Positions 18,113 through 60,622 of a stretch of DNA of 64,000 bases are shown piece by piece. The notes under the pieces were generated by a model. That model was given only the letters and a program-made list of their open reading frames with translations, was not told the origin of the DNA and did not search any database. Source of the DNA: Octopus vulgaris (Eukaryota). The stretch's first letter is position 1, and the number at the start of each line of letters is the position of its first letter. The stretch is from contig OX597833.1 of NCBI GenBank assembly GCA_951406725.2, forward strand, positions 17,236,001 through 17,300,000, read 5' to 3'. Position numbers and translations under genes: made by a program.

Positions 18113-19463
18113 GTCATAAATAACAGTGACAAACGAAATATACATTTCCGGAAGTTCTTGTTGACGAACAATGGCAGTAATTTTATTCAGCTGAATACAC
18201 GTCATTGATTGGTTGAAATTACCGAAATAAGACTACTTTAACGTGAAATAACTTCGTAAATATAAGTTTTTCTCAAAAATGCTAAGAGTAAAAGATGTCT
18301 TATATGAAACATTCTACCAGTGTCCGAAGTTTGAAAGGGTTTAGTTACAAAAAATTATTTTTTAAATCTGTTGGTCAAAAGCTAAAGAACCACACTTATT
18401 TCTCCATTGCATATAATTAAAAGCCAAAACTACGACGGACAGACGTGTATAAAAGCAGTCGGAAAGCATGCGAGGTAACGAGAGTTATATTTTCTTGTTA
18501 AAGGGTAGATTGTGTTGAACTTACGTATCTTCATGATCCCTGTTATTGTAGCAGTAGAAACTAAATTGATTAAGTGATATTGTTGAAACGAAAGTGGGTT
18601 AATGAGAAGAGCAAAGAGAGTGGTGGACGGCATAACTGTATCATTGGTAAATTCAATAGCTGTCCCTCTATGACGTTTTCGAACCGGTCAGCCTGCTCTT
18701 TCTGTCGGTTGCTCTCACTAAATTTTCTTTATAGAATACTAGTATTCTATAAAGATGGATATACCTTGTAAGAATAGCTAAATAAATGTAGGTCGTTCCT
18801 TATCTATTTCAACTTTCCATGGCATAGAAAATGTTAAGAGTCAAGTGGAAAACACATATATCTGCGTTTATCCCTGAGAGAACAATAGGTAGTATGAACA
18901 GGGAGAGTCTACAGATTCAGTTTCGAATCTCAGGTAGGGCCAAGCGAGGTCCTACACATCTCATCACCAGTAATAAATACTTGAATGACGAAATGTCGGT
19001 CGTAAGGATATTTCTAACGACTTATAAACTGTTCAACATTCGTATGTTCTAAGGAGACGAGCTGGCAGAAACGTTCGTCCCTTGGATCTTTTCTGTTTGG
19101 CTGCCAAGATTTCAAAACTAAATGTTTATTGAAAAGTTTAAAATTTGGTACATTAATGTAGTTTTCCAAACTGAATTACTAGATATATTTCACTTTTTCC
19201 AGAATTTAAAAAAAAAAAGTTATAGAGGTTTAAAGTTTGATAATTTTCTCTCAGTCAGGAAACAGGATTTGGAAGCTGTCATTTTGTGCGTGACTGTACA
19301 TTTTGTCAACATCCTGAAATAGCACGTGTGTGTTTATATGAAACCGTAAACAAATGAATTACGATCGACATATAACTTCTCATAACATTTTTTTTACTTT
19401 TTGGAATTTACAAAATATTTTTGCGAATTTGTATTATACACATGGGAATTCAAACGATTATCC

Positions 19464-20863: not shown

Positions 20864-21750
<887 letters not shown>

Positions 21751-45033: not shown

Positions 45034-45260
45034 AACATTATTTACATTTGACCACATCTTGTTTGTTTTTAACAACGTTTCGACAGATATACCCTCCAGC
45101 TTTCTTCAGGCGTCTTGAGGAAATTTCGAACCTGGATTCTCATTCCTAAGGTATTTTTCAATATTATCATTGTTGTTGTTGTTGTCACTGCTTGGAATCG
45201 AACTCGGAATCTTGGGGTTAGTAGCCCGCGCCCTTAACCACTACGCCATATGCCCACGGG
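45034..45260 (-). mobile_element. SINE family F: tRNA head plus hammerhead-bearing tail (copy 1)
   Basis: A box TGGCGTAGTGG, B box GAGTTCGATTCC, (CAA)n linker, CTGAAGA...GAAACGTT at 45071-45113. Confidence 0.8.
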
Positions 45261-56349: not shown

Positions 56350-56565
56350 TTTCTTATTTTGGCACAAGGCCAGCAATTTTGGGAAGGGAGTTAATCAATT
56401 GTATCGCCCCCAGTGCGCAACTGGTACTTATTTTATCGACCCCGAAACGATGAAAGGCTACCTCAGCCTCGGCGGAATTTGAACTCAGGATATGGATATA
56501 AAGTCGGAAGAAATGCCATGAAGCATTTTGTCCGGCATGCTAACGATTCTGCCAGCGCACGGCCT
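56350..56565 (-). mobile_element. SINE family B monomer, tail 1
   Basis: Family B core; further monomers at about 57010-57160, 57865-57990 and 58170-58355. Confidence 0.75.
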
Positions 56566-56582
56566 TTTAAATACTATCATAA

Positions 56583-56755
56583 CAGAGTTCTATATTTAAG
56601 AGATGAGGAATTATGTACATTATTTACATTATTTACATTCGACGGATATTTGTCCTCATCTTGTTTGTTGTTAACACAACGTTTCGGCTGATATACCCTC
56701 CAGCCATCTTCAGGTGTCTTGGGGAAATTTCGAACCTGTGTAATTATTATTATTA

Positions 56756-56796
<41 letters not shown>

Positions 56797-56990
56797 GTTA
56801 TCATTATTATTATTATTGTGGTTGTTAGTATTCAGGTCACTGCTTCGAATCGAACTCTGAATCTGGGGGTTAGTAGCCCGCGCTCTTAACCACTACGCCA
56901 TATGCTCGTGGGTATATCGGGCGAAACGTTGTGTTAACAACAAACAAGATGAGGACAAATATCCGTCAAATGTAAATAACGTAAATAATA
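56583..56990 (-). mobile_element. SINE family F copy 2 with an inverted partial tail at its 5' end
   Basis: tRNA head 56832-56912, (AAT)n linker, hammerhead 56674-56717; 56912-56990 is an inverted copy of about 56620-56697. Confidence 0.85.
56674..56717 (-). ncRNA. Minimal type I hammerhead ribozyme
   Basis: ACAC-CTGAAGA-T-GGCTG gagggtatat CAGCC-GAAA-CG-TT-GTGT. Confidence 0.72.
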
Positions 56991-57382
56991 TAAATAAGGT
57001 ACTATCATAATAGGTCTGAAATTTGAAGGGAAGGGCTTTCATCTGCGATTGGATGAAAGGCGAAGTCGATTCCGGCGGAATTTGAACTCAGTACGAAATG
57101 ACGGACGAAATGCCGCTAAGCATTTTCTCCGGCATACTAACGATCGTGCCAGCTCGCCACGTTTTACTACTATATTCTTTTACTCTTACTTGTTTCAGTC
57201 ATTTGACTGTGGCCATGCTGGAGCACCGCCTTTTAGTCGAGCAGATCGACCCCAGGACTTATTCTTTGTAAGCCTAGTACTAATTCTATCGGTCTATTTT
57301 GCCGAAAAGCTAAGTTACGGGGACGTAAACACACCAGCATCGGTTGTCAAGCGATGTTGGGGGAACAAACACAGACACACAA

Positions 57383-57439
<57 letters not shown>

Positions 57440-57440
<1 letters not shown>

Positions 57441-57591
57441 TTTATTTTAAGCAGCAGAAAATTCAACAAAATCTGTTACTCTGAGTTTCTCGTTGCCGTT
57501 CATCAGACAGTTTTTAAAAACTGTCTGATGAACGGCAACGAGAAACTCAGAGTAACAGATTTTGTTGAATTTTCTGCTGCTTAAAATAAAG
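57440..57591. repeat. Perfect 152-bp palindrome
   Basis: 76-bp arms, no spacer, centre TTTTT|AAAAA at 57515/57516. Confidence 0.97.
57521..57558 (+). ncRNA. Minimal type I hammerhead (mirror copy at 57473-57510 on -)
   Basis: CTGT-CTGATGA-A CG gcaa CG A-GAAA-CTC a GAG-TA-ACAG. Confidence 0.72.
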
Positions 57592-58016
57592 CATATTACT
57601 CTACCACTGGTATTTGAGTACTCTTTTTTCCACCTTGTTTCACATTTATGTGTTTACTCCGGTATATATATATATATATATACATACACATATATACGAC
57701 AGGCTTCTTTCAGTTTCCGTCTACCAAATCCACTCACAAGGATTTGAGTCGGCCCGAGGCGATAGTAAAAGACACTTGCCCATGGTGTCAAGCAGTGGGA
57801 CTGAACCCAGAACCACGTGGTTCGTAAGGAAGCTACTTACCACACAGCCACTCCTACGTCTACTTTATTTTATCGACCTCGAAAATGATGAAAAGCAAAG
57901 TCGACCTCGGCGGAATTTAAACTCAGAACGTAAAGAAGGATGAAATGCCGCGAAGCGCTTTGTTCGGCGTGCTAACGATTTTGTCATCACGCTTCCTTTT
58001 AAATACTATGATAATC

Positions 58017-58148: not shown

Positions 58149-59203
58149 ATCATAGTACTATCAAGACCAGCCAGTTTGGTGGTGGGACCAAGGCAATTAC
58201 ATCGACCTCATTGCTGAACTGGTATTTATTTTATCGACTACGAAAAGATGAAAGGCAACGGCTACCTCGGCGGAATCTGAATTCAGAACGTGAAGCCGGA
58301 TGAAATACTGCTAAGCATTTCGACCGGCGTTTTAACGATTCTGCCAGCTCGTCATCTTTTGATGCTCTAATCATAACATCATACGGTTACGTGTACGAGA
58401 TTTATCTAAGCGGCATTATGTGATGTAAGGGAAATAACTATGTAGCTTACAAGTTCTATGGGGAAATAACTCTTCCTATTTTTTCGTTTTGGGATTTGAT
58501 TTGCAAGGTTTTTTTTTATGTGAGTTAGTGTGTTGAAGCATATTCTGTTGTGTCTGGGGAGAGTAATTTTATTTTTGTACCTTGTAATGTAACATTTCCA
58601 CTTATTTCTTATTTTTATTTTCCTAAAATTTTCATTACGTCTTGCAACCTCTTCAATAGTCTTGACTTTGTCCATTATTTACACTGCGTTCCTTTTTGCT
58701 TATTTGTGCGCCTGTGTGTGTGTGTGTGCCTATGCATGCATGAAAGTACGTACGTACGTACGTATGTATGTATGTATGTATGTATGTATGTATGTATGTA
58801 TGTATGTATGTATGTATGTATGTATGTATGTGTGTATGTATGTATGTGTCCTGCATATTTATGTGCTTGCATGTCTGTGTTTGTGTATTTTCTATGTATG
58901 TGTGTGTGTGTGTGTGAGCGTGTGTTTATATATGTATACACCTCTGTCTCCTTGTGTGTGCATGTCTCTGTGTGTGTTATGCAACCATGTACCATGTTTG
59001 TATGAATTGATGTGTATCTCTATACGTGTGGACCCGTGTCTCCATATGTGTCCTTGTGTGGAGCAAAGTGTGTGTGTATATATGGTCTTGTGTTTCAGTC
59101 TCCATCATTTGCTTATGTGTGCTTGTCTGTTCATATAACCTATGTACCTATCCGTCGGTATGTTAATATGTTTATTTTCGTATCTATATGCTTACATACA
59201 TTG

Positions 59204-59493: not shown

Positions 59494-60243
59494 TAATAGT
59501 AATAATAATGAAATTATTGTATGCAGTGCTCAGGTGCACCACAACTTGTCAGAAAGTGCGTATAAAGCATATGCAGTAATGTACAAATGTCTGGAAAGTG
59601 AACAGTGTATGAGTCAGATACATGCTTGCGTGTGTATGGAGGGGAGAAAATCAGGTGTAGTGTTGGCGAATCTCAAGAAGCATGGAAGTTTTGAACGATG
59701 CAGTGCTCCGACAACTAACAACTGATGTCAGCAGTTTATTCCATACTTCAGCAACTCTTAGCGTGAAAAAATGCTTCCGAAAGTCATGGGAGCTGTGCAG
59801 TTTTCTGACTTTGTAAACATGTCCATGGGTGTTAGACAGGTGGAGTTTGAAAAGGTGCTCAGAGTTTTTATTAGTAAGATGGTTGATAATTTTATGGGTG
59901 TCTGCCAAGTCACCTGCCAGACGTCGGAGTTTCAATGTGTCCATGACCAGGGAAGTAAGGTGTTCAGAATATGGCAAATGCCTGATGGAGGGTATTCTCT
60001 TGGTCGCACGTCGCTGAACGGTTTCCAGACGATTAATATCCTGGGCAAGATAGGGGTTCCAGAATGGTAATGCAAATTCCAGGTGAGGCCGCACCATAGC
60101 TATATAAAGCCTCAGATAGACAGCCGGAGAGCGGCTCACAAAGGACTTGGTAAGTGATGGAACTGAATGAACACACACACCACAAAAATATATGTGAAAA
60201 AGCGTTATTTTTACACGGCGCAAGAACTTTTTCCTCAACGTAA
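59371..60243. mobile_element. Mariner-type MITE enclosing a CR1 fragment
   Basis: TA flanks; ~39-bp TIRs TTA(G/C)GTTGAGGAAAAAGTTC(G/T)TGC(A/G)CC(A/G)TGT. Confidence 0.8.
59405..60158 (-). pseudogene. CR1-clade LINE 3' end (ORF2 C-terminus, 3' UTR, (ATT)n tail)
   Basis: LYIAMVRPHLEFA..FWNPYL..DI..LETVQRRATKRI...LPYSEHL...LRRL.GDL...KI...THGH..K....RKHFFT.RV...WN.L. Confidence 0.92.
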
Positions 60244-60484
60244 TATTTGTTCTAAGTCCTGATACATACAAGCACTAGTTCGTGTGTGCATGCACGCACA
60301 GAAGCTACAAGCCGCTGATCCTTTGGCAGATAGACTAGTAATCTAAATAATACGTTAGCTGAAACATGTTTTCGAAGAGTTTCTAAAAGGATATCGATAA
60401 TCTCTTGCAGGAATAGTGTGATTTTTACCCACATGGAACATTCGGTCACACATCTACCTGATTAGACATTGCAAGGCGATGGTG

Positions 60485-60622
60485 GAAAAATACCTTAGGA
60501 ATGAGAACCTAGGTTTGAAATTTCGTCAGGACACCTGATGAAGGCTGGAGAGTATATCAGCCGAAATGTTGTGCTAACAACAAACAAGATGAGGACAAAT
60601 ATCCGTCAAATGTAAATAATGT
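60485..60622 (+). mobile_element. Family F tail without head, with hammerhead at 60531-60574
   Basis: ACAC-CTGATGA-A-GGCTG..CAGCC-GAAA-TG-TT-GTGC; same downstream sequence as the 56583 copy. Confidence 0.8.

Follow-up and report, generated by a model that had tools for sequence, protein, structure and literature searches.

A perfect 152-bp palindrome in Octopus vulgaris, the probable product of a stunted Penelope-like insertion

Penelope-like elements (PLEs) leave insertions of a distinctive anatomy. As described in the excerpts of the literature cited here, they are 5'-truncated, are often accompanied by an adjacent inverted truncated copy, carry a tail of 30-40 bp at one end and are biased towards (TA)n targets (PMC8557442), while the palindromes found at the inverted junction were inferred to arise by self-priming, on the antisense template and not on the cDNA (PMC3846280). 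Minimal hammerheads that occur in pairs, one on each strand and separated by 100-700 bp, have been linked to truncated PLEs, and the excerpted account of this work reports that a lone minimal PLE hammerhead gave no cleavage in vitro (PMC4209133). In PAc, the Poseidon PLE of Anolis carolinensis, the ORF is described as starting at stem II, with the hammerhead overlapping it, the cut 26 bp further on and the tail downstream (PMC11167929). The excerpted sources themselves state that neither the origin of the inverted PLE ends nor the role of the hammerheads has been resolved (PMC8557442, PMC11167929). O. vulgaris is reported, in the part of the source used here, to contain recently active Penelope families (PMC13282606).

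We analysed 64,000 nucleotides of O. vulgaris DNA (contig OX597833.1, positions 17,236,001 to 17,300,000; hereafter the window), in which a palindromic insert lies within a microsatellite tract. By itself this locus matters little, since an abundant retroelement has probably left many such stubs and their anatomy has already been published. The family to which it belongs combines abundance with short inverted copies, and the positions of its joints could therefore be counted by the thousands against the predicted ribozyme cut.

The palindrome and its target site

An earlier note on this DNA had described a perfect 152-bp palindrome with spacer-less 76-bp arms, the right arm running on for about 70 bp. 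Both descriptions were borne out. The arms pair at 76 of 76 positions around a centre at 57515/57516 with a spacer of zero, and the continuation of the right arm, present on one side only, measured 71 nt and ends at 57662, giving an insert of 223 bp in total (Table 1). With one mismatch allowed, the repeat finder extended the pairing to 81 nt, into the TA tract. The segment 57440-57591 is by far the longest perfect non-microsatellite palindrome in the 64-kb window, for which the chance expectation of a palindrome with 76-bp arms is ~1e-39. The second longest, at 18726-18755 (30 bp, perfect, centre 18740), has arms of 15 bp. No second copy of the arm was found in the 64-kb window.

Table 1. Features of the insert, its target tract and the flanking repeat (positions in the window)
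Feature	Position	Strand	Basis
Inverted arm, 76 bp; its outer end is the mirror of 57591, where the family has its inner recurrent terminus	57440..57515	-	palindrome pairing and loose ends
Direct arm, 76 bp; putative 5'-truncated end piece of the element, pseudo-LTR-like	57516..57591	+	parent's different upstream letters
Tail, one-sided 71-bp extension; ends at the family's outer recurrent terminus	57592..57662	+	loose ends into (TA)n
Mirror hammerhead-like motif	57473..57510	-	arm symmetry
Minimal type I hammerhead-like motif	57521..57558	+	sequence and fold
18-codon frame, ATG inside the hammerhead core	57528..57584	+	sequence
(CA)n then (TA)n, left part of target microsatellite	57396..57439	.	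sequence
(TA)n-rich tract, right part of target microsatellite	57663..57696	.	sequence
3' half of host SINE-like repeat	57176..57395	-	17 further window matches, 68-92% identity
5' half of host SINE-like repeat	57695..57862	-	16 further window matches, 70-96% identity

The insert is flanked on both sides by (TA)n, between two colinear halves of one repeat, in agreement with its earlier placement in the (TA)n centre of a SINE; the name then given to that repeat, SINE A, is a label of the note's own. A tRNA-like head, judged by eye, marks the putative 5' end of this SINE-like repeat and so gives its direction; ARAGORN found no tRNA genes in the window. The best matches of the two halves to other copies reach 89-92% over most of each half. 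Any target-site duplication is unreadable within the (TA)n tract. Among the 13 centres of other host-repeat copies that were listed, eight are plain tracts of the CA/TA type, 16-98 bp in length; the remainder comprise two that are short and decayed, one that holds another inserted element and two in which the halves may have been mis-paired. At 21026-21529, a copy of the host SINE carries a different tRNA-headed element inside its microsatellite centre, which suggests that such centres attract insertions.

No host gene was found around the insert; Pfam gave no matches for the 4 of 49 long frames that were scanned. A 207-codon frame at 59651-60274 (-), which we take to resemble the end of a CR1/L2-type LINE ORF, gave no Pfam match at E 0.01. 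Clustered near the locus are four diverged copies (63-80%) of another short repeat, at 56500-56582, 57043-57177, 57878-58012 and 58238-58372.

The arms differ from one another at 0 of 76 positions (95% upper bound 3.9%), and 57516-57662 differs at 0 of 147 positions from one contig of a public run, X13 (upper bound 2.0%). Since these bounds fall below the divergence of the host SINE, the insert appears to be younger than its host, and need not be recent; the youth claimed for it earlier is thus retained in this relative and loosely bounded sense.

A repeat family in public runs

At least half of the sampled words were held by 20 of the 24 public runs listed, which derive from 10 studies and bear 8 organism labels, and the arm was nearly unchanged across these 20. 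Comparison at the level of contigs covered four of the 20 holder runs, at 85% likeness, and yielded 12,749 matching contigs in X1, 4,486 in X4, 244 in X17 and 1 in X13; summed depth was not used as a measure of copy number. The repeat family is very abundant. The copy studied here carries the minority allele at both 57559 and 57583, where T makes up 61-69% of the depth of X1 and X4 at the latter. X13, which bears another organism label, contributed one low-depth contig that has this copy's minority haplotype and is identical to it over 57516-57662, as against hundreds to thousands of varied contigs in X1, X4 and X17; it may represent contamination, diet or a low-copy relative. We considered A-to-I editing at 57559, the sole place with an A>G difference, and rejected it, because the same difference occurs at 54% of depth in a run that is probably DNA and so reads as an allele. 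No RNA run was recognized among the listed holders of the arm, the RNA status of X13 and X17 being only guessed, and neither of these two was counted towards expression.

Upstream of 57516, contigs from X1 (28) and X13 (1) show the parent going on differently, with up to 30 letters of it visible in loose ends; the left arm is therefore not parent sequence. Among the loose ends listed, those running into (TA)n behind 57596 mark an inner terminus (79 contigs in X1, 40 in X4) and those running into (TA)n behind 57659 mark an outer one (67 contigs in X1, 69 in X4). Both ends of the insert are thus recurrent family termini adjoining (TA)n. At 57592, T makes up 13% of depth in X1 and 15% in X4, which agrees with the reading of this insert's left junction.

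Joints of the same head-to-head kind, leading from an inverted arm into a direct arm, recur in the family. They account for 14 of the best-supported 15 of 49 joints, have centres other than the one seen here and come from two studies, with depths of 32-252 and with four of them common to X1 and X4; some contain filler letters. In 10 of the 14 the joint is symmetric within 9 nt, compared to the 14-22% that would be expected if the two break points were independent (binomial 2e-6 to 1e-4), a statistic that rests on the selected set of the best 15 of 49. The offsets of these 10 near-symmetric joints are loop-sized (4-9 nt) in seven and 0-1 nt in three. In addition, a snap-back at the same T5 run, its loop 5 nt long, was read by eye in one X4 contig. 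None of the contig pieces listed spans the exact centre or the whole stretch; contigs of this kind would not be expected to cross a perfect palindrome whose length exceeds the assembly word.

We also considered whether the fall in depth toward the centre reflects a gradient of truncation. This was rejected, as it mirrors the fall at the right end. The depths of the two arms sum to a flat 2.8-3.1 million over 57552-57591 in X1, which indicates that most copies do not end at the ribozyme site. Pattern scans disclosed no relative among the metagenome and genome contigs, and no parent frame for a PLE reverse transcriptase (RT) or GIY-YIG endonuclease came to light. A 34-nt pattern had no match in metagenome contigs, and a 22-nt pattern had one match each in metagenome and genome contigs (L001, L002), both of which we discarded as 23-nt chance matches in GC-rich bacterial sequence. 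Among the papers listed on octopus hammerheads and retrotransposons, and on non-autonomous tRNA-derived SINEs with Penelope hammerheads, we found no description of the family; Repbase, Dfam and the supplements of PMC4209133, PMC8557442 and PMC13282606 may contain one.

Taken together, these findings identify the insert with good confidence as a copy of a very abundant family that ends in (TA)n and is often arranged head to head, most probably a stunted PLE insertion. The reading proposed earlier, in which a PLE-type insertion is truncated at its 5' end and carries an inverted pseudo-LTR, agrees with all of the data, among them the parent's upstream letters, the recurrent termini at (TA)n and the recurring head-to-head joints. 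Membership of the PLEs is most likely on anatomical grounds.

The hammerhead-like motif and the route of insertion

The earlier note had placed a hammerhead on each strand of the palindrome. All of the conserved core bases (C3-A9, G12-A15.1, U16.1 and H17) are indeed present on the plus strand, with CTGATGA at 57525-57531, GAAA at 57542-57545 and the triplet GTA at 57552-57554, and they recur in the mirror at 57510-57473; cleavage is predicted after 57554. Helix I consists of 4 bp, with 3 bp more past a mismatch, helix III of 3 near-palindromic bp, and helix II of 2 bp only, closed by a GCAA loop. The G10.1-C11.1 pair is absent, as A57532 faces A57541. The A that follows A9 can be read as an extra base or, equally, as part of an A-A mismatch, since a second unpaired A precedes G12. 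No variant at 5% or above is listed over 57521-57558 in any of the four runs (X1, X4, X17 and X13), so that the odd helix II is apparently the form of the family. Rfam was silent, with no matches in the window at the gathering score and no hammerhead family among the 54 matches up to E 10. The matches obtained by E-value were microRNA and snoRNA models scoring the hairpin, all of them under the gathering threshold, and were set aside. With the G10.1-C11.1 pair absent, the motif would be better termed hammerhead-like than a standard minimal hammerhead (min-HHR), and for the same reason we regard its self-cleavage activity as doubtful.

The predicted energy of the monomeric hammerhead fold is +0.5 kcal/mol, compared to -134 kcal/mol for the full hairpin. 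Of the predicted dimers, the active one, whose intermolecular helix has 4+4 bp with a central A-A, is less stable (-10.6 kcal/mol) than a mis-registered one (-15.2 kcal/mol). A transcript of either strand would, according to these models, hold a single sense motif base-paired to its complement. The suggestion that the hairpin sequesters the ribozyme therefore agrees with predicted folding, but such sequestration is probably without consequence, given that a single minimal PLE hammerhead did not cleave in vitro in the excerpted report (PMC4209133). Both hammerhead-like motifs at this locus are probably inactive passengers. The frame that opens at the ATG at 57528 is closed by a stop, which comes at codon 19 here and, if the majority allele is put in, at codon 30.

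A second, unrelated family in the window also bears a hammerhead. It is represented at 56611-56905 (-) and 45046-45253 (-), by a headless copy at 60511-60622 (+) and by an inverted piece at 56904-56997 (+). Its layout comprises a tRNA-like head, an (AAT/AAC)n linker and a textbook minimal hammerhead with an extra base after position 9, the G10.1-C11.1 pair and a palindromic ACGT helix III. The head at 56.9 kb is adjoined, head to head, by an inverted copy of the family's 3' end, 94 nt long (91%). The family has the appearance of a tRNA-derived SINE whose 3' end is of PLE type. A tRNA-derived non-autonomous SINE with a Penelope hammerhead end was not found in the literature searched, and this family is possibly of more interest than the 57440-57662 palindrome.

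As to how the palindrome was made, we lean, with some reserve, towards fold-back, that is, snap-back self-priming of a truncated cDNA. On this model the endonuclease of the element would nick the (TA)n tract of the SINE, and reverse transcription would start at the outer site, 57662, and break off 147 nt later, on reaching the A5 run at 57516. The end of the cDNA would then snap back and prime a 76-nt copy of itself. This copy would be attached by the inner terminus, 57591, to the opposite side of the target, so that the 71-bp tail remains at a single end. Lying within the copied end, the hammerhead-like motif would be carried along, its mirror copy being a by-product. Support for snap-back comes from the symmetry of the joints, the 4-9 nt offsets in 7 of the 10 near-symmetric ones and the X4 contig with its 5-nt loop at the T5 run. 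The zero-spacer centre, however, is unlike a simple fold-back product and needs either untemplated A's or the loss of a loop, and the three near-symmetric joints with offsets of 0-1 nt tell against snap-back as well.

That central difficulty does not arise with twin priming, in which a dimeric PLE protein nicks both strands and two cDNAs, begun at 57662 and 57591, run to the 5' end of one RNA before repair joins them head to head. Twin priming needs no loop and accounts more simply for an inverted arm that ends at the inner terminus. Precedent exists in PAc, described as nicking and extending both strands, with two start sites that bound the tail (PMC11167929), and the filler letters in some of the listed joints also speak for it. 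Moreover, 9 of the 14 listed inverted arms (best 15 of 49 joints, X1 and X4) end at 57555-57564, in the first 10 nt downstream of the predicted cut, which is where a common 5' end of the RNA would put them, compared to 17-20% expected (binomial 1e-4 to 3e-4). Twin priming nevertheless strikes us as rather unlikely, though a serious competitor: the same listed joints show loop-sized offsets in 7 of 10 near-symmetric cases, the centre of this copy is displaced 39 nt upstream of the predicted cut, and two cDNAs on one RNA are not reported in the excerpts of the PLE literature cited here. PAc, in the excerpted account, inserts without need of hammerhead cleavage and shows no RNA-seq reads ending at the cut (PMC11167929). 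The excess at 57555-57564 may also arise simply because short insertions are commoner. It is accordingly doubtful to us that a family of tens of thousands of copies has a conserved, non-standard hammerhead that cuts in vivo and sets the template's 5' end, with mirror joints piling up downstream; the summed depth in X1 shows no step at the predicted cut and, unlike a 5' end set by cleavage, this copy extends 39 nt beyond it. If true, the family would constitute a natural genomic record of hammerhead cleavage in PLE transposition, one that decides between fold-back and twin priming.

A fixed 223-bp unit that moves as a whole, a palindromic and non-autonomous element in the manner of a retrozyme or a MITE, would suit the very high abundance of the family and the near-constancy of its arm over 20 runs, 10 studies and 8 organism labels, but the centres vary between copies, the parent continues upstream of 57516, the window holds no second copy and the tandem ribozyme units of retrozymes, as described in the excerpted source (10.64898/2026.07.22.740005), are missing, all of which makes it very unlikely. 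We rate as more improbable again a fold-back chimera of sequencing or assembly, taken together with its weaker form, in which only the spacer was lost by consensus error at the hairpin tip. Such a chimera would explain why the exact centre is bridged by no contig among those listed, yet it would mirror the flank, and the inverted arm here ends where the family has a recurrent terminus, beyond which comes the other half of the SINE, correct and colinear; two studies, moreover, contain like joints at depths of 32-252. A chimera of the whole palindrome is for these reasons barely credible. The absence of the spacer alone, through consensus error, fares better, since a 5-nt loop, missing from this copy, is retained in the parent-derived snap-back of one X4 contig, and is merely improbable. 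Finally, the predicted fold of -134 kcal/mol might invite the view that the hairpin is under selection as a regulatory structure, whether as dsRNA for ADAR or Dicer or as a ribozyme with an antisense lock. The structure follows already from the route of insertion, and no host gene was found nearby (Pfam, no match for 4 of 49 long frames), so that we give this view almost no credence.

Comparison with described elements

Set beside the EN+ PLE unit as described in the excerpts of PMC3846280 and PMC8557442, the insert shares the 5'-truncated direct copy with an adjacent inverted copy, the two lying head to head with a palindromic junction, a tail at one end only, and an AT-rich microsatellite target with no discernible target duplication. 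As in EN+ PLEs, a hammerhead motif, here of variant form, lies within the pseudo-LTR. Unlike that unit, the insert is only 223 bp long, has no ORF and shows zero spacer and zero offset at its centre, and its tail is 71 bp in length, compared to the 30-40 bp given in the excerpts of PMC8557442. In EN+ PLEs the pseudo-LTR and the beginning of the ORF overlap; the hammerhead core of this copy contains an ATG, but its frame stops early.

The motif resembles the min-HHRs described in the excerpts of PMC4209133 in being of type I, in keeping all core bases, in its short helix I, in a near-palindromic helix III that suits dimers and in the occurrence of opposite-strand pairs nearby. It differs from them in having A-A for G10.1-C11.1, a helix II of 2 bp and an active dimer that is predicted to be less stable than the mis-registered one. 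The likeness to PAc, drawn from the description in the excerpts of PMC11167929, concerns the ATG, which lies at the hammerhead core or start of stem II in both; the predicted cut about 24-27 nt past the ATG, compared to 26 bp in PAc; and the two fixed downstream termini that bound a tail, here at +64 and +135 from the ATG. Unlike in PAc, the frame is closed at codon 19, and the placement of the ATG is no more than suggestive of the PAc ORF start.

Within the PLEs, the (TA)n bias would fit both Naiad and Neptune as these are described in the excerpts of PMC8557442. The Naiad clade is characterized there by an N-terminal endonuclease and by having no canonical hammerhead, and the hammerhead-like motif found here argues against it. 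Non-LTR retrozymes, according to the excerpted account (10.64898/2026.07.22.740005), are likewise short, non-coding and PLE-related, with a type I hammerhead. They consist, however, of at least two head-to-tail tandem units, each with its own hammerhead, whereas the insert in the window is a single head-to-head stub.
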